Assembly (NCBI GenBank): GCA_025839675.1
Contig: CP104013.1
Coordinates: 5,310,001 to 5,342,000 of the forward strand
Source: Candidatus Lokiarchaeum ossiferum
GTDB taxonomy: Archaea > Asgardarchaeota > Lokiarchaeia > Sigyniarchaeales > Promethearchaeaceae
Reading direction: 5' to 3'
DNA: 32,000 bases
Shown: positions 996 through 21,245 of the stretch, one piece after another
How positions within the stretch are numbered: position 1 is the stretch's first letter
How the letters are laid out: each line of letters starts with the position of its first letter
Translations under genes and position numbers: made by a program
Notes under the pieces: model-generated
Database searches by the model: none
Told to the model about the DNA's origin: nothing
Seen by the model: only the letters and a program-made list of their open reading frames with translations

Positions 996-1901
996 TTAGA
1001 AATAGTTCATTAACTTCTTAATATCTTCCAAAAGATTAAACGAGTCCATTATTAGAGGTGATGCATCAAGAATTTTGGTAGAATCGTAGCCAAAAGTGAA
1101 ATAAAATGGTTCTTCTCCTATTTCAAATGCAATCATATATAATGTGATTTCTTTTACTTGAAGTGATATTTGCGACAAATTTAATTGTTTTTCTGTAAAA
1201 GTTTTAAATATTTCATGGGAAATATCTCGCATTTGTTGCTGATTAATTGCAGGATTGAAATAGTTTCCAATTTCCATCAGATTTTTTGTAAAAATCATTA
1301 TAAAATCACAACCATTTCCTTTGTTAATAAATTCCATGAATAATATTTGAAAATTATCATAAAGTGTTGTATTCTGGAAAATTGGCTTGGAAAATGCGCG
1401 TATAACATTTATTGGGTTGAAAATTGATGTCTTTGCAATTCTAATATTTAATGGTTGACTGAGTTCCAGAAATTTTTTTTGAAGGGTTTCATACATCTTG
1501 ATATGATCTTCACTGGCTTCAAAACCTGGATCAAATTTATTTATCAGCAAATTGATGGTAGCATCTGGAGAGTATTCCAAAATTGATTCTTTAATATCCC
1601 CAAAAAATGTCATTGATTCCGTCATTGCATCTTGATCTTGAAAATCAATAACAAAGAACAATTCTTCAATGCCGGAAAAATAGGTTTCTGCCTTCTTTTT
1701 ATAGGATTCGCGATATTTTTCTTGACCACCAAAATCCCAAACGACAATATCTGAATCAAGGAATTTTAGCTTGGAACGTTCAATTCCCTTGGTGGGTTTA
1801 ATGGCTTTTTCCAAGGTTTTAAATTCTCTTCGCAGAGTAAGGATTAAACTTGTTTTTCCTCCTCCCGCAATTCCTAAAATTGGTAACTTTCGAATAGGCA
1901 T
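996..1901 (-). CDS. Rag/Gtr-family small GTPase with C-terminal roadblock-like domain (paralog 2)
   Basis: 301 aa, collinear with and clearly homologous to ORF 9..923. G1 GIAGGGKTS, G3 WDFGGQ, G4 NKFD, 'ILEYSPDATI', 'KTSIFNPINVIRAFS'. Same two-domain architecture. Confidence 0.75.
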   Translation of the reverse strand: MPIRKLPILGIAGGGKTSLILTLRREFKTLEKAIKPTKGIERSKLKFLDSDIVVWDFGGQEKYRESYKKKAETYFSGIEELFFVIDFQDQDAMTESMTFFGDIKESILEYSPDATINLLINKFDPGFEASEDHIKMYETLQKKFLELSQPLNIRIAKTSIFNPINVIRAFSKPIFQNTTLYDNFQILFMEFINKGNGCDFIMIFTKNLMEIGNYFNPAINQQQMRDISHEIFKTFTEKQLNLSQISLQVKEITLYMIAFEIGEEPFYFTFGYDSTKILDASPLIMDSFNLLEDIKKLMNYF

Positions 1902-2447: not shown

Positions 2448-2876
2448 TTATTTCGTGTTTTTTTTTATTACAGTGTCAATTATGCTCGCAAATTGAGCTT
2501 TTGGCGCCATTCCGACTTGTCGATGTACTAATTTCTTATTTTTGATAAATAATGTGGTTGGGATACCAGACACTTGGAACTGCTGTGCAATTTGTCCTAA
2601 ATCATCAACATTTAATTTTGCGAAGATTACACCTTTCGATTTAAATTCCTTTTGAAGTGCCTCAAAAGCTGGTGCAAATGCTTTACAAGGTCCACACCAA
2701 GCTGCCCAAAAATCTACAATTATTATATTATCAATATAATCGTTAACTATTTCATTAAAATGGTCAACTGAACTTATATTGACCACGCTATCAGGGAGTT
2801 GTTTTGTTGTCATCATTTCTATCATCTTTTTTCGTCGTATTAATTCTAACTCTTTGTCTTGTGACATTTTTTTCAC
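2448..2876 (-). CDS. trxA: thioredoxin
   Basis: 142 aa. Canonical active site 'WAAWCGPCK' and the downstream 'GIPT' cis-Pro loop. Has an N-terminal charged extension. Confidence 0.9.
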   Translation of the reverse strand: MKKMSQDKELELIRRKKMIEMMTTKQLPDSVVNISSVDHFNEIVNDYIDNIIIVDFWAAWCGPCKAFAPAFEALQKEFKSKGVIFAKLNVDDLGQIAQQFQVSGIPTTLFIKNKKLVHRQVGMAPKAQFASIIDTVIKKNTK

Positions 2877-3127
2877 GTAAGTATTATCGAATGGTTGTGC
2901 ATTTTTTTTTCCATTCTATATTAGTATAAACGATCCATATATTTAAAGGTTGTGCAAAAAAAAAACCTTACTTTCATATTTATTTCTATTTTGCCTAGAA
3001 TGGAGATTGTTTACATTGGAATCTTTTGACCCTTTTTTTCCGAATATTTCGAATGGAACAACTTAAATTAGTCAAATATTTAGATCAAATAGATCTATAT
3101 GGAATTTACCGACACAGGTAATTAACC

Positions 3128-3427
3128 ATGGAAATAACAGAAGAAGCATGTGAATTTGTTTCTGAGCAATCAAGCATAATGCAAGATCCGGTAATAGTCG
3201 TGTTTGAACGAACTTATCGAGGTTGATGCGGTGAAACAAAAGTAATTAATGTGGCTCCTGCTGATCGAGAAAAAGTGATAAGCCCAGAAAACTATATTGA
3301 GAAGAGTATCCCAGAGTGTAAATTTCCTATATTCTTTGAATCGAATTTGCACCATTTATATGATTCTGCCAAAATTGATGTTGTTGGATGGTCTGCTTTT
3401 AGAAGATTGGCATTGACCCAAAATTGA
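3128..3427 (+). CDS. HesB/IscA-like small protein with in-frame UGA (candidate selenocysteine at codon 33)
   Basis: Not in the ORF track. ATG 3128, in-frame TGA at 3224..3226, then 66 further open codons to TGA 3425..3427. Translation: MEITEEACEFVSEQSSIMQDPVIVVFERTYRG-U-CGETKVINVAPADREKVISPENYIEKSIPECKFPIFFESNLHHLYDSAKIDVVGWSAFRRLALTQN. This is collinear with IscA ('ITLSDSAAARV', '[20 protein letters not shown]', '[21 protein letters not shown]'), with U at the IscA 'GCSG' Cys. AGGT lies ~10 nt upstream of the ATG. Confidence 0.6.
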
Positions 3428-4182: not shown

Positions 4183-5046
4183 GTGATTTCTGGACTGAAT
4201 TATATGACCCCCTCACCCCAAACAAAGGAAGAATGCCGCAAAATTTTCGAAAAAGGGCTTTCAATTTATAGTAAAAAGGACTATACTTCTGCATTACCTT
4301 ATTTTAAAAAAATGGACCATCGAGAATTTGAAGTTCTGAAATATTATCATCTCGGGTTAACTTACATTCAATTAGGTCAATTTGAAAATGGTTTAACTCA
4401 TTATCGAAAAATTCATGAGATTCCTCCTTCTGTTGAAGGAATAGAATACGATAGAATTATGTATAGTTTGTATATCAATATGGGATCAACTCTCCAAGTG
4501 CTCGCTCGAAGGAAACAAAAACCAGAATTATTTGAAGAGGCGATTACTTGCTATACTTATGCTTTACAAATCAAAGATTTTGATCCTCGAGTATGGAATA
4601 ATTTAGGAAACGCGTATCTTGATATGAATAAATTCCAAGATGCCATTAGATGTTTTAATAAAGCGATTAAATTAGATGATGAATTTCCTGAAGCCTACTA
4701 TTCTCTTTCCTTAGTTTACGAATCCATGAAGATGTATGAGAAAGCTGTGGAAGTATTAAAAAAAGGGTTGCGATGGAAGGCACGAAATAAAACATATTTG
4801 AATCGAATCGCGGGCTTAACCTTTGGGTTGGGAAATTTCCAAGAAGCTAAAGAATATGCTAAACGGGCAGTGGATGTAAAACCCGATGATCTTACTGCAA
4901 ATAAAAATCTCTCATTAATTTTATATAATCTTGGTGAATATGAAGAAGCATTCACATATTATCAGAAATTGTTATTGATTAATCCCGAATTCAAAGAGCC
5001 AGAAGTCGAAGGAATTTTTGAGGATCTTAAAAAAAAGATTTCATAA
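4183..5046 (+). CDS. TPR repeat protein
   Basis: 287 aa with repeated 34-aa TPR signatures (e.g. 'WNNLGNAYLDMNKFQDAIRCFNKAIKLDDEFPEAYYSLSLVYESMKMYEKAVEVLKKGL'). The track start is GTG 4183. An in-frame ATG at 4204 is an equally plausible start. Confidence 0.8.
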   Translation: MISGLNYMTPSPQTKEECRKIFEKGLSIYSKKDYTSALPYFKKMDHREFEVLKYYHLGLTYIQLGQFENGLTHYRKIHEIPPSVEGIEYDRIMYSLYINMGSTLQVLARRKQKPELFEEAITCYTYALQIKDFDPRVWNNLGNAYLDMNKFQDAIRCFNKAIKLDDEFPEAYYSLSLVYESMKMYEKAVEVLKKGLRWKARNKTYLNRIAGLTFGLGNFQEAKEYAKRAVDVKPDDLTANKNLSLILYNLGEYEEAFTYYQKLLLINPEFKEPEVEGIFEDLKKKIS

Positions 5047-5199
5047 ACAGAATAAAATATCAAATGCTAATTTTAGTTTCAAAAAAAACATCTCTTTTTT
5101 TTCCAAAATGGACCAATTTCCTCTATTAATCCACTTTTCACATGATCAAAACAAGAACGCAAGATAATCTTTTTAGGTTTGCCATCTAAAATAGACTAA

Positions 5200-6675
5200 A
5201 TGGATCGACTTGATATTCGTGATTGTAAAGCTGTGGAAGAAAAGTTAAATTTACATTTTGATTCAAAAATCAACAGCAAAATTCTTTTAAATAAAGGAGA
5301 AAATTTTGGATCCATTTCAGATGTTAAAGTTACGGATTATAATGGTGCCAGTGTTGTATATAATTTCGAATTTAATTATATAACAAAAGATTTGGAAGGT
5401 GGGTCTCGCCGTTTTATTTTAAATTTATACTTAGCGGATGACGAAGACCAATTATTTTTGCAGGATCAAATGAATGTAGAAGAAATCATCAAACTAGATA
5501 TCTATGAATTAAAGAAATTTCATTTTGAAAATAATCCTTCGGCTTTGGGTTTCAAATTTATGCTATTAGAATCTATTCCGAATCAAGATCCAATTGCCAA
5601 TATTCGAAAAAATCTGAATTTGAAAAATCCTCAAGCAGTTAAACAACGAATTGAAAAATATCTATCCAAATGGCGCTATCTCCATAAACGCGGTCAAAAG
5701 ATGTTAAAACGCAAGGAAAAATATGTTTGTGTCCATGAAGTAAAGGAATTGGCCTTTGGTTTAAACAACATTGTTTATAATCTTACTTTAAAATATACAA
5801 CTCCTGATGAAAACGAGCATCTAAGAGAATATATCTTGCGTGTTTATCCAAATAATCGAAATCTAATAAAACCGACTAATGAGGCCCAACGATATCATAA
5901 TCTTAGACGTATTGATATCCCTAAAGCAAATCTCTATATTTTTGAGAAATCTCTTAAGCCTCTCGGACACCGTTTTTTAATTTTAGATAAATTGCAAGGA
6001 ACTCCTATCTTAGAAACTATTAGATCCTTTAATCAAGATCAATTGGATAGTTTTATGGCAGATTTAGCCATGTATCTTGGAACGTTGCACTCCCATAGAT
6101 CCAAAAAATATGATTCTTATTATGTTAATGAGTCGATCACCAAAAAATTGCCCTTTGAACGATATATAATGTTGGAAATTAAAAATACTTTGAAAAATTT
6201 CCAAAAAATGGGATTAGATAAAGAGTTGGATGTTGATACACTCTATTTTTATAAATGGTTTCGAGGTCATCGACCATTGCTTAGATTGGATGCATTTTCT
6301 CTGGTTCATGGCGATATTCGACCAAGCAATATTATTGTACAAGATGACAAAATTTCTGGATTAATAGATTGGGAAATGAGTTGTTATTCAGATCCGGCTC
6401 AAGATATTGGGTGGTCATTGTTTTTCTTCAAATTATATGAAAATATGAAAAAACCCCGTGGTTTATTCTTTTCAGAATATTGGAAAGTCTGTGGAGACTA
6501 CAATGTTGAAGCGCGGGTTCGGTTCTATGAAATCTATGCGGCAGTAAAATTGTATATTTATACACGGCATACAGAAGATAAACAACCAGAAAAATATGCT
6601 AAAAATATCGATTTTTTTACACGTGTCAAAAACTTAGTACCCAAGTACATTGACAGCGTGACTCATCGAGATTAG
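5200..6675 (+). CDS. APH/choline-kinase-family protein kinase-like phosphotransferase with duplicated N-lobe-like module
   Basis: 491 aa. Catalytic loop 'LVHGDIRPSNIIV' and metal-binding 'GLIDWE' are typical of the aminoglycoside phosphotransferase family. Residues ~40-130 repeat the pattern of residues ~180-270. Confidence 0.7.
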   Translation: MDRLDIRDCKAVEEKLNLHFDSKINSKILLNKGENFGSISDVKVTDYNGASVVYNFEFNYITKDLEGGSRRFILNLYLADDEDQLFLQDQMNVEEIIKLDIYELKKFHFENNPSALGFKFMLLESIPNQDPIANIRKNLNLKNPQAVKQRIEKYLSKWRYLHKRGQKMLKRKEKYVCVHEVKELAFGLNNIVYNLTLKYTTPDENEHLREYILRVYPNNRNLIKPTNEAQRYHNLRRIDIPKANLYIFEKSLKPLGHRFLILDKLQGTPILETIRSFNQDQLDSFMADLAMYLGTLHSHRSKKYDSYYVNESITKKLPFERYIMLEIKNTLKNFQKMGLDKELDVDTLYFYKWFRGHRPLLRLDAFSLVHGDIRPSNIIVQDDKISGLIDWEMSCYSDPAQDIGWSLFFFKLYENMKKPRGLFFSEYWKVCGDYNVEARVRFYEIYAAVKLYIYTRHTEDKQPEKYAKNIDFFTRVKNLVPKYIDSVTHRD

Positions 6676-15436: not shown

Positions 15437-15679
15437 TCTATTTTTATCACTTTATTTTCTTTTTTTAAACTTAAAAATCACGTATTTATGGGTAATTGAC
15501 ACCCATTTCCTTGCCAATTTTGTGTAAAGATCCCTATTTTTGCTGGAATCCACGCAAAGTTTAAATAAGGGAAAATTAATTTACAAAAAATCCATGTATT
15601 TAAAATGGAGAAAATCTTTGGAAGATTACTACTAGAAATAACCTAAAAATCATTAGATTTATATTGGATGTATTGTAAG

Positions 15680-16600
15680 ATGTCAAATTTATTCATTATG
15701 GATGTTAAAAGTGATGTTACGAAAGTTTTGAATCATCTAACTTATAACAAATTAAAAATATTAGATCCGTTTTTTACTCAGTCGATTAAAGCTGTTTTTT
15801 CAACAGATATTTCTATGAATTCAATTTTAATTGAAACTCAGAAAAAATCGGAAGCATTAAGGATAACTAAAAAAATTGTCTCAATTGATTCCACATCCAT
15901 CAAGGTTTATGAAAATGAAGGGGGGTTGTCGAACATTGAGAATTATTGTGTATATAATATTTCTACGGGATTTCCGGAAGAAGAGGATTTAAATCTTGTT
16001 GGTTCGATTAATCTGAAAAATTTAATCACACATTTATTTTCAATGGGGCAAGAAGTGGTGAGAATTGGCCTTTGGGATTCGGAAAGTGATGAAGAAAATT
16101 ATGCTTCCTTAGTCATTTTTTCTCCTGAATCAGTTCTTTTAGAAAATTTTGACTACGAATTCGAATTTCAGGATGAAGAAGAACATGAATCTGAAGAAGT
16201 CCTGGAAGTGGATGAAGATCTTGATGTGGAGGATGAAATTGAAATGGATGCCGAAATTGAAGCAGATGACGAACCGCTAAAAGATGATAATTCTGTAGAT
16301 GAAGTCCAATCCTTAATAAAAGATGTCAATATTCGGGAAAAAAAAAAAAATGAGCCCCAGGAAATATCTTCATTAGCGCATGCCCAATCATTACTCGCTT
16401 CTTTGGAAAATCGCTATGAAAATTTACAGTTAGATTATGAATCAAACAATCGCGAAAATGCTCGATTAACTCAAAAATGTAAAGATTATGAACAAGAAAT
16501 AATTAAAATTACTGATGAGTTAAAAATTTCTCAAGATCAATTGCAGAAGTTGCAAAATGCAATAAATACTCTCATAAATCTCTCACAAATTGAAAAATAA
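15680..16600 (+). CDS. hypothetical protein: conserved ~165-aa N-domain, acidic linker, C-terminal coiled coil (paralog B)
   Basis: The track ORF starts at 15668 (MYCKM...). Met at 15680 (MSNLFIMDVKSD) aligns with the paralog A start. D/E-rich linker 'QDEEEHESEEVLEVDEDLDVEDEIEMDAEIEADDE'. C-terminal coiled coil. Confidence 0.7.
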   Translation: MSNLFIMDVKSDVTKVLNHLTYNKLKILDPFFTQSIKAVFSTDISMNSILIETQKKSEALRITKKIVSIDSTSIKVYENEGGLSNIENYCVYNISTGFPEEEDLNLVGSINLKNLITHLFSMGQEVVRIGLWDSESDEENYASLVIFSPESVLLENFDYEFEFQDEEEHESEEVLEVDEDLDVEDEIEMDAEIEADDEPLKDDNSVDEVQSLIKDVNIREKKKNEPQEISSLAHAQSLLASLENRYENLQLDYESNNRENARLTQKCKDYEQEIIKITDELKISQDQLQKLQNAINTLINLSQIEK

Positions 16601-16606
16601 TTTTAA

Positions 16607-17956
16607 TTATTTACCTAAATCTATCAAATCCCTCATTTTTTCTAACATTTCTTGCCCTTTGTTTGTTAATATATATAATGCTTTTTTTTGGTCTGGAATG
16701 GTATCAATAATCAATCCATCCTCAACAAGATTGTTGATATGTTGGTAAATTGACTGTAATGATTTCTTTTTACCCAAAGCTCCCCAAATTGCATAACCAT
16801 GATTTGCTTTTTTTTCTGCTACTAAATTTAGAATTTCAAATCTTTGGGTTGAGAACTCAGAAATACCCCACACTACCTTTTTTATATCCCTCATTTGTGA
16901 TGCAAAAACATTTAGAGCATTTAATCCAGAACCGGTTAAAATTGCCACAGAAGTCTTTGGATCAATTTGTTCTTTCTGTATAAGAGATTTTGCTGCCGAA
17001 ATTACTGATGCGGAAGCTGGTTCAATAAACAATCCTTCATATTTGGCAAGATCTAAGGCATCCTTTGTCATTTCGGAAGCGTCTATTTGTAATTCTTCTC
17101 CTTCTGTAAGTTTTAAAATAGAATTGACTTCATTAATCAAGAATGGATTTTCCAATTTAAGCGATTCCGCTAAAAATGCTCCATCGCTTTTTTTGAGAGA
17201 GACTGCAAATATTTTTGGAATTTTACTTATCCATTTTGAAGCCAGGGCATCTTGAAATCCTCTGTAAATTGACAATATCAAGGTTCCCGAACCTCGAGGT
17301 ACAATAATACTCTCGATATTTTTCATTTGGAGAATTAATTCTAAAGCGATTGTCTTTTGTCCCTCGATTGTGAGTAAATTATTATTTGGGGTGGGGAAGT
17401 AACTCTTTTTTGATAAAGTTAATTCATTGGCCAAAGAAATGGCTTCATCGAGATTTTTCCCTGCTTGAATCACTTCAGATCCATAAACTTTGATTTGTTC
17501 AATTTTGGCTAAATCCATCTGTTTGGGTAAAATGTTAGTGGAAGAAATCTGTCCTTTTGCACTATATGCCGCTAGGCTTATACCAAATGATCCTGTGCTT
17601 GCAGAAATGATTTTTGAAAAATTTTTTGATAGAATATCTGAAGTGATTAGGGCACTCGCACGATCACGAAATGAACCCGTTGGATTCCTAAATTCAAGTT
17701 TTAGATTTAAGTTTTTTAAATTTTCCATATTCTGAATTGGGATAACTGGAGTATTTCCCTCAAAAAGGGTGATTTGCTGTTCATATTTGGGTAAAAAAGG
17801 GATCAAAGACCACATTGATTTTAGTTCAATTTTTTCAATAGGAGGGCCGGTAATCGGATGAATAAAGATCAAATTATTGCAATTCGGACACCAAAGGTAT
17901 GGCACCTCAAATTCTTGGTTGCATTTATTACAAAAAGGTTTATTCTTCCATTTCAT
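16607..17956 (-). CDS. threonine-synthase-like (PLP fold type II) domain lacking the Schiff-base lysine, with N-terminal Zn ribbon and C-terminal PadR-type wHTH
   Basis: 449 aa. Zn ribbon 'CNKCN...CPNCN'. ThrC-family blocks 'NPTGSFRDRAS' (canonical NPTGSFKDR), 'SASTGSFGISLAAYSAKG', 'EGQKTIALEL', 'PRGSGT'. C-terminus 'ILNLVAEKKANHGYAIWGAL...SIYQHINNLVEDGLI...LYILTNKGQEML' matches the PadR pattern. Confidence 0.75.
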   Translation of the reverse strand: MKWKNKPFCNKCNQEFEVPYLWCPNCNNLIFIHPITGPPIEKIELKSMWSLIPFLPKYEQQITLFEGNTPVIPIQNMENLKNLNLKLEFRNPTGSFRDRASALITSDILSKNFSKIISASTGSFGISLAAYSAKGQISSTNILPKQMDLAKIEQIKVYGSEVIQAGKNLDEAISLANELTLSKKSYFPTPNNNLLTIEGQKTIALELILQMKNIESIIVPRGSGTLILSIYRGFQDALASKWISKIPKIFAVSLKKSDGAFLAESLKLENPFLINEVNSILKLTEGEELQIDASEMTKDALDLAKYEGLFIEPASASVISAAKSLIQKEQIDPKTSVAILTGSGLNALNVFASQMRDIKKVVWGISEFSTQRFEILNLVAEKKANHGYAIWGALGKKKSLQSIYQHINNLVEDGLIIDTIPDQKKALYILTNKGQEMLEKMRDLIDLGK

Positions 17957-18091
17957 CTTTAATTCCCTTATCTATTTCTATTTTGTTTTAAATCATATTT
18001 TACTTTTCCCACTTTTTCATTGTAATTATTATGAAATCAATTAAATTTTATTAAAGCTTAATCCATACCACATATAGAGAGCCTAAGAAGA

Positions 18092-18586
18092 ATGACAGAA
18101 AACAAAGAAAATACTCGCTATTCCCTTCTATCTCAGAAAATGGGGTTTAATCAAATGAGAAATTCCCTTTATTGGCTTCAAAGATATATGAAGCGTTTCA
18201 ATGTTTCTCAAGATGAGTTGGAACGGCGATACTTAGAGATGGGCAAAAATATTGGTGCAAGCTTTATAAAAGAGATTGCTCCGCAATCTAAAGAATTAAA
18301 AAATTTATTCCGAGAACTTTACAATTTGACTTTAAGTAGTAAAGTTAAAGTTTTACAAGAAGGAAATGTCTACACTATTCAAGATACTAAATGTGCTTTA
18401 TGTAAGTATCAATATGATGATATTGATTTAGCAGGATGTACGATAGAGATTGGGATGATTTCTGAAATGTTGGAAAGATTAGGTTATAATGTTATTGATA
18501 GTGCTGTCATTGAAAGTAAAACTTATGGGCATAAATCTTGTATCCATCAGTATACTGCCAACAAAGTGGGGTTTTTACATGAGTAG
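18092..18586 (+). CDS. V4R-domain protein (COG1719-like; Bet3/TRAPP-fold relative)
   Basis: 164 aa. The C-terminal 'CALCK...AGCTIEIGMISEMLERLGYNVIDSAVIESKTYGHKSCIHQY' fits the V4R pattern C..aG.l.G.....lG..v...E......G...C.f. Confidence 0.6.
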   Translation: MTENKENTRYSLLSQKMGFNQMRNSLYWLQRYMKRFNVSQDELERRYLEMGKNIGASFIKEIAPQSKELKNLFRELYNLTLSSKVKVLQEGNVYTIQDTKCALCKYQYDDIDLAGCTIEIGMISEMLERLGYNVIDSAVIESKTYGHKSCIHQYTANKVGFLHE

Positions 18587-20027
18587 TACTTTTAAGTGGA
18601 TTGCCATCAAAGCTGGAACATTATTGGGTCGAAATGTACCCTCCTTATTCTATCAGTTAATTTATCGAGAAATCTATCGGGAAATATTCGATTTGACTAA
18701 AAATGGGAAACAAACAATTGAGGATTCATATAAATTAGGATACGTATCCGCTCAAGAAAGTGCAGAACGCCAATTGGCCGTTTTCCGTATGTTTCCTTCT
18801 GATCCTATCAAAGTTTTGGAATATGTTCCATTAATGTGGCAAATTTATTTTGGTCAGCCTATGGGTGATTATACCACTGAATGGGATCACTCAGATCCAA
18901 TTCGCCCCATATTAACCTATAAAATAAAAAATGATCCCATGACTTTTGATATGGGAAAAGACCCATTGCGGGATAATCTTCCATGGGATAAATTATGGTA
19001 TGGAGAAAATGGCTATGGTGCATTAATGTCGGGATTACTTACTCAAGTAAGTAGTTTTGTTTTAAAAGTTAAAGGTAGGGATGAACGGATTACTTTAATT
19101 AACAGTAGTAATGCTCTCCATGGTGATACCCATTTTGAATTTCGTTGTCAAGTATTACCAACTGAAGATGAACTCCCTGATTTTACTTTTAACCATATTT
19201 CTGCTTCCAACTCACGTTCAAATGCTTCAGATTCTGCAGAAATAAAGAAAAATAATGAAATATGGGCAAAAATTACCGAAAATATTGATCTTGATAAATT
19301 GGATAATATGATGGAATCTCCAGAAGGATTGCTCCGTGTTCCGTTATCCAATGCCATAGAAAAAATATCTAAGATGCCTTCGGTAGAATTTTTGGATCAT
19401 TTCACGAATGATGAAGAAAAAATAATTCAAATACTTGGGTTTATCGGAATTCATTTATCAAATGAATGGGGACAATTACCAGAGACATTCTTTAAAAATA
19501 AGAGTTTTGCGAAAGTTTATGCTCATATTTTTCTATTCATGAAAAATAATGCCGAAAAATTTATTCCCGTTAATATTATTGGTGAATTTAAAGGATATTT
19601 GAGTGCCGTATTTGAAGGAATGGCACCAGAAACCTTTGTTACTAATTTACAGAATATTCCAGAGAAAAAAGTGCTCGATCTTTTCTTCTTAGGTGTAGAG
19701 AAAGCATTGAAGGATTTAGGAATTGATTTTTCAACTTTGAAACCTTCTCTTTATGAAGAGTTCAAGACGCATAATGTAAAAGAATCTGAGAAAAGTGCTT
19801 ATGACCAGGGACAGCAAGAAAAAAAGGATCTTCTTATAGCTCAATTAGTTGATCAGATGATGATTATTTCTACTGCAATCCTAAGCATTCCTTCACAAAT
19901 GGCTATGGTGCTTATTTATAAAGTTATTTCAAGTTCTGGTAGTCTTTTCAGTTCTTTATTCAAAACGATCCGAGATAGTGGGCAACAGATAATTGAACTA
20001 TCGGATAAATTGAAAGAATTCAATTAA
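18579..20027 (+). CDS. divergent V4R/Bet3-like domain protein with ~250-aa helical C-terminal extension and hydrophobic tail
   Basis: ATG 18579 overlaps the upstream stop (ATGAGTAG), implying coupling. The track start at 18489 lies inside the upstream gene. N-terminal ~225 aa end in 'GYGALMSGLLTQVSSFVLKVKGRDERITLINSSNALHGDTHFEFRCQV', V4R-like with the Cys ligands mostly lost. The C-terminal region includes 'MMIISTAILSIPSQMAMVLIYKVI'. Confidence 0.5.
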   Translation: MSSTFKWIAIKAGTLLGRNVPSLFYQLIYREIYREIFDLTKNGKQTIEDSYKLGYVSAQESAERQLAVFRMFPSDPIKVLEYVPLMWQIYFGQPMGDYTTEWDHSDPIRPILTYKIKNDPMTFDMGKDPLRDNLPWDKLWYGENGYGALMSGLLTQVSSFVLKVKGRDERITLINSSNALHGDTHFEFRCQVLPTEDELPDFTFNHISASNSRSNASDSAEIKKNNEIWAKITENIDLDKLDNMMESPEGLLRVPLSNAIEKISKMPSVEFLDHFTNDEEKIIQILGFIGIHLSNEWGQLPETFFKNKSFAKVYAHIFLFMKNNAEKFIPVNIIGEFKGYLSAVFEGMAPETFVTNLQNIPEKKVLDLFFLGVEKALKDLGIDFSTLKPSLYEEFKTHNVKESEKSAYDQGQQEKKDLLIAQLVDQMMIISTAILSIPSQMAMVLIYKVISSSGSLFSSLFKTIRDSGQQIIELSDKLKEFN

Positions 20028-20080: not shown

Positions 20081-20254
20081 ATGTCAGAAGAATTTACTTT
20101 TTATGAAGTAGATATCCAAGAAAAGCGTCAATTACCTTATACGATTACTGTAGAAAAGGTTGAAGGGGACATAATTTTTACCCATAACCAATGGGGAAAC
20201 TCTGTGCGATACCAGAAAGTCGATGATGATTACGAAATTTTGATCGACGAGTAA
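20081..20254 (+). CDS. small hypothetical protein (57 aa, below the ORF-track cutoff)
   Basis: ATG 20081 to TAA 20252-20254. Translation: MSEEFTFYEVDIQEKRQLPYTITVEKVEGDIIFTHNQWGNSVRYQKVDDDYEILIDE. Lies 53 nt after the V4R-like gene on the same strand and is followed by a T8 tract at 20276-20283. Confidence 0.4.
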   Translation: MSEEFTFYEVDIQEKRQLPYTITVEKVEGDIIFTHNQWGNSVRYQKVDDDYEILIDE

Positions 20255-20294: not shown

Positions 20295-21245
20295 TTAAAT
20301 TTTAAAACTTTTCAATCCATGTATAATTGTGGCTTTTTCCGATGAATTTAGCATTGTTTGATTGCGTTCTAATTGTTTTACAATATTTTTATAATAAGTT
20401 TTGAATTTTTTAATGATCAACCACTCTATAGTGCCTGCGAGGAATGGAAATAAACCCATCACAATGTAGATAAGGCCTGAAAAATAAACTTGCAATACTT
20501 CTGCATCATTATCGATAGGAAAGCTTATATTTACTCTCCATAATCCCCGTAAACCTGCAGTTAAGAATATGAACAGGCTGTCAATCACAGTTATTGCCAA
20601 TATTATGAACCACCCAATAATTAGAATCATCTCATACCGTTTTCTGTTTTTTGTACTAAAGGTTGCAATAATAATATCCGGGGCTTTCGATTGGGCATGG
20701 TCGGAATTATCTAACATTATTTGATGCTGAATTTTAGTGCTAGAACCACTAATTGAAAACCATATTACCCAAAACCATGTCAAGCAATATATTAAAATCA
20801 CAGGCAAAATGAAAAAATGCGCATAATTATCCATCAATTGGGGGTGAATCTTTGCATCCAATCCTAAAATTAAGAGGATTATTATTTGTGAAAGGGAAGA
20901 TACCAAGAAAATATACCACAATAACTTTTCAGAACTTAACGGATTGATGGAAACGCAATCAGTTCTTGGTTGAGTTGATACCTTAAAAATCCAAAGTATA
21001 CAGAAAAAAATGGTGCCAAACCAAGTAATTATTGGAAACAAAAACAATTGGGGAGAAGTCCAACCTTCAATATAGATTAAAACAAGTCCAATTAAATATG
21101 GAATTATAGATAAAAGAAATTCCGGTGTATGCCAAAAATTGCTTATTTTGAGTTCTTCATCCCTTAATATTCCATGATCTGGCATCTTTACCTTCTTTGT
21201 AGTATCTTTTAATTTTAAAGGTTTGGAAATTACATTTATAAGCAT
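20295..21245 (-). CDS. hypothetical multi-pass membrane protein
   Basis: 316 aa with ~8 hydrophobic segments. No recognisable family. Confidence 0.5.
   Translation of the reverse strand: MLINVISKPLKLKDTTKKVKMPDHGILRDEELKISNFWHTPEFLLSIIPYLIGLVLIYIEGWTSPQLFLFPIITWFGTIFFCILWIFKVSTQPRTDCVSINPLSSEKLLWYIFLVSSLSQIIILLILGLDAKIHPQLMDNYAHFFILPVILIYCLTWFWVIWFSISGSSTKIQHQIMLDNSDHAQSKAPDIIIATFSTKNRKRYEMILIIGWFIILAITVIDSLFIFLTAGLRGLWRVNISFPIDNDAEVLQVYFSGLIYIVMGLFPFLAGTIEWLIIKKFKTYYKNIVKQLERNQTMLNSSEKATIIHGLKSFKI

Follow-up and report, generated by a model that had tools for sequence, protein, structure and literature searches.

In eukaryotes, the core of the transport protein particle (TRAPP) contains a family of proteins, the Bet3 family (Bet3/TRAPPC3, Trs31/TRAPPC5 and Trs33/TRAPPC6), which share one fold and are used in pairs of paralogs. 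The prokaryotic V4R proteins (PF02830; PoxR, MopR, DmpR and MsvR), which combine a Cys-bound Zn motif with a hydrophobic ligand pocket, have the same fold, as do the TRAPPC3-like proteins of Asgard archaea, single domains of about 160 residues built in two layers, with four helices on a four-stranded sheet. The TRAPPC3 protein of Thorarchaeota (Thor TRAPPC3) was reported to bind Zn2+ through four cysteines and to dimerise with itself in a manner similar to eukaryotic TRAPPC3/C6 (Tran et al. 2024, PMC10933270). Recent reviews that cite this work say of Asgard TRAPPC3 proteins no more than that they dimerise as the eukaryotic ones do. These proteins are used to argue that some of the trafficking machinery of eukaryotes arose before the eukaryotes themselves, and descriptions of them have so far been of single, homodimeric proteins. 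The locus considered here lies in a 32,000-nucleotide stretch of contig CP104013.1 of Candidatus Lokiarchaeum ossiferum (hereafter, the window) and consists of two overlapping open reading frames (ORFs), ORF A and ORF B. Whereas the published Asgard TRAPPC3 proteins have been treated as stand-alone homodimers, the gene for the TRAPPC3-like protein A precedes here, with hardly an exception among the loci compared, the gene for a very divergent putative paralog, B.

ORF A alone is already known, as the ortholog of a published protein. The partner B and the A/B pairing appear to be new, no description of them having been found in the searchable literature. Tran et al. is the only source found to mention the accession of an A ortholog; neither that paper, which has no mention of a B paralog, nor any other within the search, which subscription-only papers lay outside, mentions the B accessions or locus tags. 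The tight and conserved pairing suggests a two-protein complex older than the eukaryotes.

The gene pair and its conservation

ORF A (18092..18586, plus strand; 164 residues) matches exactly the sequence of NEF87_004519 of Candidatus Lokiarchaeum ossiferum B-35, so that the Asgard-like context assigned to this DNA by the initial annotation, which was made from the letters alone, proved right. ORF B (18579..20027, plus strand; 482 residues) encodes the B-type partner. The same annotation had also placed the start of ORF B over the stop of ORF A. The two frames indeed overlap by 8 nucleotides, ATGAGTAG: the ATG of ORF B occupies 18579-18581 and the TAG of ORF A, at 18584-18586, falls within codons 2-3 of ORF B. 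The coupling junction as a whole (18566..18586, plus strand) also includes a G-rich, Shine-Dalgarno-like GTGGGG (18566-18571), 8-13 nucleotides 5' of the ATG. The frame of ORF B stays open for 30 codons 5' of position 18579 (18489-18578), which would allow a protein of at most 512 residues, starting from 18489, and one public gene call (P0001) gives ORF B 500 residues, with a start placed 18 codons too early, within ORF A. By sequence conservation, the true start of ORF B is the ATG at 18579, because the N-terminus that it specifies, MSSTFKW, is conserved: all of the 20 homologs that were aligned start with MS/G-x-x-FKW.

The pairing of the two genes is near-universal. Among species-representative genomes, all eight B-encoding loci belong to Promethearchaeota and each has an A homolog immediately upstream, with junctions of -17, -8, -4 or +6 nucleotides. 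Counted over genome loci, the pairing holds in nine of nine, with distances from -17 to +6 nucleotides. When metagenome contigs were examined starting from A, a B-type gene was found directly downstream in 77 of the 80 loci, and two of the three loci lacking B end within 104 nucleotides of A, leaving 77 paired loci out of 78 informative ones. The sole exception (L029, Ga0209536_100665004) shows no B-type match in the 509 nucleotides downstream of A; a frameshift or a misassembly might account for this, or the exception may be real. The order A then B also holds in five loci of Helarchaeota type and in two loci of a second Lokiarchaeial clade (clade 2), and all 16 non-metagenome loci that were checked are paired. 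In 74 metagenome loci the distance from the A stop to the B start ranges from -17 to +18 nucleotides, with a mode of +2 nucleotides (48 of 74), and a Shine-Dalgarno-like motif stands 5' of B in 72 of them. Because the genes around the pair are conserved within subclades only, the A/B pair itself appears as the conserved unit. The joint occurrence of the two genes, which had been singled out from the start as a check on the pair, is kept almost without exception.

Predicted folds and candidate zinc sites of the two proteins

The ortholog of ORF A in Promethearchaeum syntrophicum MK-D1 (DSAG12_02084, WP_147663132.1) has been modelled with AlphaFold2 as a TRAPPC3-like protein and named 'MKD1-TRAPPC3' (Tran et al. 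2024), and it is on this published model that the two-layer alpha/beta fold predicted for ORF A rests. A profile of the A family (32 members) matches 7yh2, the TRAPPC3 of Thorarchaeota AB25, with E=3.2e-4 over residues 29-152. In this alignment C101, C104, C116 and C150 of ORF A all coincide with the four cysteines of 7yh2, which makes them candidate Zn ligands; among 116 A-type sequences none of the four falls below 80% conservation. Thus ORF A shares with the described Asgard proteins (7yh2/7yh3, MKD1-TRAPPC3) both the single domain and the four aligned cysteines. It matches neither V4R (PF02830) nor TRAPP (PF04051) in Pfam and has no NCBIfam match above threshold, the sole hint there being a match to the V4R portion of MsvR that stays far short of the cut-off (E=0.004), while 8 of the 32 A-family members match TRAPP PF04051 at E<=1, the best with E=1.1e-4. 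The protein had at first been called a canonical V4R protein with its cysteines retained; the cysteines are indeed retained, but the word canonical is generous for a protein that misses the Pfam thresholds for V4R and TRAPP, and ORF A is better termed an Asgard TRAPPC3-like protein.

The N-terminal domain of B (residues ~20-195; 18636..19163, plus strand) is predicted to have the Bet3/TRAPPC3/V4R fold. The AlphaFold2 model of ORF B, built on 20 homologs, has a mean predicted local distance difference test score (pLDDT) of 66.8 and a predicted template-modelling score (pTM) of 0.40, with pLDDT values of ~70-84 across most of the N-terminal domain. This domain is modelled as helices 22-40 and 43-64, short helices, strands 98-103 and 111-116, helix 148-164, and strands 169-177 and 186-194, a topology of a1-a2-(short helices)-b1-b2-a-b3-b4. 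When the model was compared with the PDB by Foldseek, the top 23 matches were all eukaryotic Bet3/TRAPPC3, with E-values of 8e-5 to 1e-3 and target template-modelling (TM) scores of 0.64-0.80. The Bet3 entries had a probability of 1.00, and the single-protein ones a target TM of 0.76-0.80, among them mouse Bet3 1wc8 (E=1.9e-4, target TM 0.77), human Bet3 1sz7 (TM 0.78) and 2j3w_E (TM 0.80, root-mean-square deviation (rmsd) 2.8 Å). After Bet3 come the bacterial V4R sensor domains of MopR and PoxR (E 1e-3 to 2e-2), that of DmpR being listed as well, and then Trs33/TPC6, followed by Thor TRAPPC3 7yh3 (E=0.026, TM 0.70). The eukaryotic Bet3 family has the same fold as this domain, but a sequence identity to it of only 11-18%.

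ORF B itself has no Pfam or NCBIfam match, and the profile of the full B family gave no match to PDB profiles at E<=10. An exhaustive search with the B profile, covering 1.84 billion representatives, returned only 60 proteins at E<=1e-3. The profile search revealed stand-alone relatives of ~190 residues (short B), which cover B residues ~13-197 with library-wide E-values of 6e-14 to 1e-4. These short-B relatives (in the range P0120 to P0141) keep an invariant CPxC…C…C motif. Of the PDB families, their profile matches no more than two, both weakly: Thor TRAPPC3, at E=0.017, and yeast Bet3, at E=0.2. In hhalign it pairs its CxxC with that of the A family (E=4.8e-4, probability 32%), and Pfam gives the relatives themselves weak matches to V4R (E ~0.05). 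It is only through these Cys-retaining relatives that the putative paralogy of A and B becomes visible at the sequence level. Structure prediction and this indirect bridge both point to a Bet3/V4R fold for the N-terminal domain of B, in agreement with the similarity first proposed for it. The domain had been described as a degenerate V4R pattern of ~225 residues with its ligands lost; the loss of ligands stands, whereas the domain ends at about residue 195.

At the four ligand positions, the B protein of the window carries D119, T122, A148 and N178, all four cysteines being replaced. Most of its relatives differ from it in this respect: 59 of 106 aligned B-type sequences read CCCC at the ligand columns, seven are fragmentary but have Cys at every ligand position that they cover, and six are partial (NCAC in five, CCAC in one), standing between CCCC and the fully Cys-less forms. 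All four cysteines are kept by most B-type proteins, and their loss is, judged from this alignment, derived and characteristic of one subclade. Three arrangements can be distinguished. In the Helarchaeota-type loci (L010, L011/L012, L013, L014 and L017) an A protein of 167-185 residues and a short B of 188-199 residues both keep their cysteines. The second Lokiarchaeial clade (L015, L016 and most metagenome loci) has a long B of 489 residues, with the four cysteines kept and both the C-terminal domain and the hydrophobic tail, described below, present. In the clade of L. ossiferum, MK-D1 and Harpocratesius, B is long, all four cysteines are lost and an ORF of 57-60 residues lies 3' of B.

Since eukaryotic Bet3 is also devoid of a Zn site (Tran et al. 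2024), the absence of the cysteines does not exclude a Bet3 fold for B. A few A-type proteins (P0033, P0047, P0049 and P0050) have lost their cysteines too, so that the Zn site has been given up repeatedly, a loss that eukaryotic Bet3 shares. One of these, P0049, neighbours a Cys-less B-type protein, P0022, the two having the adjacent locus tags ACTSVU_01945 and ACTSVU_01940.

The C-terminal half of ORF B

Lokiarchaeial B proteins carry about 280 residues beyond the Bet3-like domain, and the Bet3-family proteins have no counterpart of the helical domain and hydrophobic segment found there. The N-terminal domain is followed by a variable, disordered, low-complexity acidic linker (residues ~196-236; 19164..19286, plus strand), in which pLDDT is below 50 from residue 204 to residue 236 and the alignment is gapped and poorly conserved. 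Next comes an all-helical domain (residues ~237-400; 19287..19778, plus strand), for which the domain-only AlphaFold2 model is compact (pLDDT 76, pTM 0.65). Its profile has no match among PDB profiles at E<=10, and its model has no significant match by Foldseek (best E 1.8 in PDB, 0.58 in BFVD). A BAR domain, a chemoreceptor and a large TRAPP subunit were considered for it and rejected, the Foldseek matches in question being long-helix artefacts with rmsd >30 Å.

Further downstream, a hydrophobic segment, LLIAQLVDQMMIISTAILSIPSQMAMVLIY (residues ~418-447; 19830..19919, plus strand), contains a near-invariant central P-x-Q, in which P438 and Q440 are nearly invariant, and has a low hydrophobic moment. 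Its maximal Kyte-Doolittle value over 19 residues is 1.86 in the window B and 1.63-2.34 in the 19 full-length homologs, all of which, like the window B, exceed the threshold of 1.6 used for a segment of at least 19 residues. It is followed by an amphipathic helix at the C-terminus (residues 448-482; 19920..20024, plus strand), with a hydrophobic moment of 0.5-0.6, which AlphaFold2 models as a helix with low confidence. From its composition and conservation, the hydrophobic segment is a candidate membrane anchor or hairpin. The C-terminal half of B is helical in both the full-length and the domain-only models, as the initial annotation had it; that annotation also let the protein end with a hydrophobic stretch, and here the conserved stretch is real but its terminal position is not, the 35 amphipathic residues coming after it.

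The helical domain is also found in another setting. A homolog of it (B residues ~197-403) forms the C-terminus of a set of HAD_2 phosphatases (P0124 and P0131 to P0135; an example of the kind is MHA1230702.1), one of them being annotated as Helarchaeota. These phosphatases thus have the same helical domain as B, but their N-terminal module is a HAD_2 hydrolase and not a Bet3-fold domain; this part is a generic type-IA phosphatase without a specific assignment. Some of the fusions bear a similar hydrophobic tail ('LSIP/LAIP'). In two Helarchaeota-type loci the gene for such a protein lies upstream of an A and short-B pair and on the same strand, at a distance of 0.8 kb in L011 (1144-2721) and of 2.5 kb in L017 (5001-6608). 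That the domain is fused to B in one lineage and, in another, neighbours the pair on a HAD protein argues that the Bet3-like pair and this domain work together. In a further locus (L018), the gene (5001-6470) comes directly after that of an 885-residue acyltransferase (PF01553), a neighbour that hints at lipid metabolism. Between the phosphatase gene of L011 and the pair lies a gene for a 198-residue protein (2790-3386, plus strand), zinc-ribbon-like with two CxxC pairs and weak Pfam matches.

What the pair may do, and the genes around it

Sequences and models together show the folds of both proteins, how tightly and almost universally they are paired, how their domains are arranged, that ligands were lost and that B has a domain in common with the HAD phosphatases beside the pair in Helarchaeota, and on this the following scheme may be built. 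ORF A and ORF B would encode paralogs of the TRAPPC3/V4R (Bet3) fold, stabilised by Zn, that diverged long ago and are translated together from a single mRNA, and these products would assemble as a heterodimer through their N-terminal helices, as in Bet3-family and V4R dimers. Lokiarchaeial B would have gained a helical domain of a new kind and also a hydrophobic segment placing the dimer on a membrane or on a partner, and in the subclade of L. ossiferum and MK-D1 it would, like eukaryotic Bet3, have given up its Zn site as well. Rather than promoting nucleotide exchange on a GTPase, such a dimer would most likely act at the membrane, where it would bind or present a lipid or a hydrophobic small molecule. 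We hold the heterodimer through the N-terminal helices to be somewhat more probable than its absence. Our confidence is lower for the two further steps, that the tail of B would place the dimer on a membrane and that the pocket of the fold would bind a hydrophobic ligand.

Besides the pairing, the domain common to B and the HAD phosphatases and the conserved hydrophobic segment, two further points bear on this scheme. In both families no element is better conserved than helix 1 (LFY.L.YRE in B, with a mean top-residue frequency of 0.78; NQMRN..Y.L.R.M in A), and because the two N-terminal helices form the dimer interface in this fold (Tran et al. 2024), this conservation is a hint of a heterodimer interface. 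As for the ligand, Bet3 binds palmitate, phenols are bound by PoxR, and the interior of Thor TRAPPC3 contains cavities (Tran et al. 2024). Several observations speak against the scheme. AlphaFold2 predicts a homodimer for the A ortholog and Thor TRAPPC3 crystallises as one, and green fluorescent protein fusions of Asgard proteins, including TRAPPC3 proteins, are diffuse in HeLa cells (Tran et al. 2024). The model of ORF B is of only moderate confidence, as its mean scores indicate, and a direct hhalign comparison of the A family with the B family of the L. ossiferum and MK-D1 clade finds no similarity (probability 0.3%). The hydrophobic segment is polar for a transmembrane helix, containing Ser, Thr, Pro and Gln, and 35 more residues follow it; it could alternatively be a buried or an oligomerisation helix. 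The idea of a ligand or lipid is drawn from analogy and from a single neighbourhood, that of L018.

The published homodimers lend themselves to another explanation, in which A2 and B2 would be separate ligand-binding proteins of V4R type, co-regulated in the same pathway and never forming a heteromer. The crystallographic homodimer of Thor TRAPPC3, the homodimer modelled for the MK-D1 ortholog of A and the homodimeric bacterial V4R sensors (Tran et al. 2024) all agree with it, but it leaves the invariant coupling of A and B unexplained: the adjacency, overlapping or with a gap of 0-2 nucleotides and near-universal despite differing flanks, is typical of subunits of fixed stoichiometry, L029 is the only A-type gene with enough downstream sequence that has no adjoining B, and helix 1 is the best conserved element of both proteins. 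We consider two independent homodimers rather unlikely. A redox or small-molecule sensor comparable to MsvR or to XylR/DmpR/PoxR, in which a Cys-rich V4R protein would signal to a regulator such as the divergently encoded PALP enzyme with its winged helix, is brought to mind by the faint NCBIfam hint of A to MsvR, by the presence of the MopR, PoxR and DmpR sensor domains among the Foldseek matches of B and by the HTH_45/PadR-like helices of the PALP protein. V4R sensors, however, possess an AAA+ or helix-turn-helix (HTH) output domain, whereas no DNA-binding or AAA+ output domain was found in A or B with Pfam and NCBIfam. Conservation of the PALP neighbour with its winged helix does not extend beyond the L. 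ossiferum and MK-D1 clade to the loci of clade 2 or of Helarchaeota, and the cysteines that a redox sensor would need have been lost from B. Such a sensor is, in our judgement, very unlikely.

The initial annotation had proposed a TRAPP-like module and pointed to Rag-like GTPases in the same window. Taken as an exchange factor or tether, this would be a primitive form of TRAPP, in which a membrane-anchored A/B scaffold would join with longin or roadblock proteins encoded elsewhere to activate one of the many Rab- or Rag-like GTPases of Lokiarchaeia. Several facts go in this direction. Foldseek places the N-terminal domain of B nearer to eukaryotic Bet3 than to the bacterial V4R sensors, the loss of its Zn site parallels that of eukaryotic Bet3, the eukaryotic Bet3-family paralogs act as heterodimers, and a Heimdall protein fuses longin and TRAPPC3 domains (Tran et al. 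2024). In addition, the window does contain two tandem genes for Gtr1/RagA-like GTPases of ~300 residues each (9-923 and 996-1901, minus strand; Pfam E 1e-19 and 2e-20), with C-terminal extensions of ~130 residues. In clade 2, a roadblock (Robl_LC7) gene on the opposite strand is found downstream, separated from the pair by a distance of two to three genes (L015, 7476-7847; L016, 8254-8498; both minus strand), in loci whose B keeps its cysteines. It is the sole related gene in the loci inspected, and L015 and L016 are mutually syntenic, so that they amount to a single observation, made in genomes with dozens of roadblock genes. The GTPase genes are 16 kb away from the pair, and none is found within 10 kb in the syntenic locus of MK-D1. 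They were therefore rejected as partners of A and B: of the earlier pointer to them, their presence stands and their link to the pair does not.

Nor does the conserved neighbourhood contain any longin, roadblock or GTPase gene, which is at odds with the proposed module in so far as a GTPase exchange factor was meant. No longin was seen among the scanned window ORFs of at least 100 residues or among the called genes of the related loci inspected, a survey that addresses linkage and not whole genomes. In eukaryotic TRAPP it is the core longin pair, flanked by Bet3-family subunits, that contacts Rab, and while Bet3 paralogs are used in pairs there as well, the Asgard pair has no linked longin partners (Bet5, Trs23, Trs20). 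The partner that is linked in Helarchaeota is a HAD phosphatase and not a GTPase regulator. As the longin and GTPase features were sought and not found linked, A and B are not classed here as a TRAPP complex, and we regard the exchange factor or tether as unlikely. A still more far-reaching proposal would see in the pair a pre-eukaryotic, membrane-anchored heterodimer of Bet3 paralogs, ancestral to the Bet3-Trs31/Trs33 core of TRAPP and already recruiting longin or roadblock proteins to regulate small GTPases of Asgard archaea at a membrane, with an independent loss of the Zn site mirroring a step on the eukaryotic stem; this we find quite unlikely.

If the favoured heterodimer of A and B exists, a near-universal, coupled pair of paralogs would move a hallmark of the TRAPP core, the hetero-pairs of the Bet3 family, into the archaea. 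One of the two paralogs carries a probable membrane anchor as a fusion and, in certain lineages, is as devoid of Zn ligands as eukaryotic Bet3. The link to HAD phosphatases points to the handling of lipids or small molecules over the control of GTPases, and would temper the usual 'trafficking' reading of these proteins. The pair is a small experimental target, two proteins and a peptide of 57 residues, in two cultured Lokiarchaeia, L. ossiferum and MK-D1.

This peptide is encoded by ORF C (MSEEFTFYEVDIQEKRQLPYTITVEKVEGDIIFTHNQWGN…; 20081..20254, plus strand; 57 residues), 53 nucleotides downstream of ORF B. Wherever a locus of the Cys-less clade reaches far enough downstream, ORF C is there on the strand of the pair: in the window, in seven genome loci and in the metagenome locus L019. 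Its counterpart in MK-D1 is annotated as a gene of 60 residues. The loci of clade 2 and of Helarchaeota lack ORF C, and neither Pfam nor NCBIfam gives a match for it. Possibly it is a third member of the operon, and its product a third subunit. The presumed promoter of this A-B(-C) operon is the AT-rich intergenic region 17957..18091 (plus strand for the operon), read from the sequence, which is common with the divergent PALP gene and includes, 5' of ORF A, a TATA-like aaattttattaaag at ~18044-18057, likewise read directly from it.

The PALP gene (16607-17956, minus strand) encodes a threonine-synthase-like enzyme with an N-terminal CxxC…CxxC and a C-terminal winged-helix domain (HTH_45/PadR), and its divergent arrangement with ORF A is syntenic in MK-D1. 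Two other genes without a family match flank the pair: one for a 310-residue protein with an acidic coiled-coil C-terminal half (15668-16600, plus strand), the other for a multi-pass membrane protein of 316 residues (20295-21245, minus strand). Their positions are occupied in MK-D1 by genes of 303 and 289 residues, matched by size and position. Genes for a TrmB-like regulator and a thioredoxin come after the tandem Gtr1/RagA-like genes of the window.

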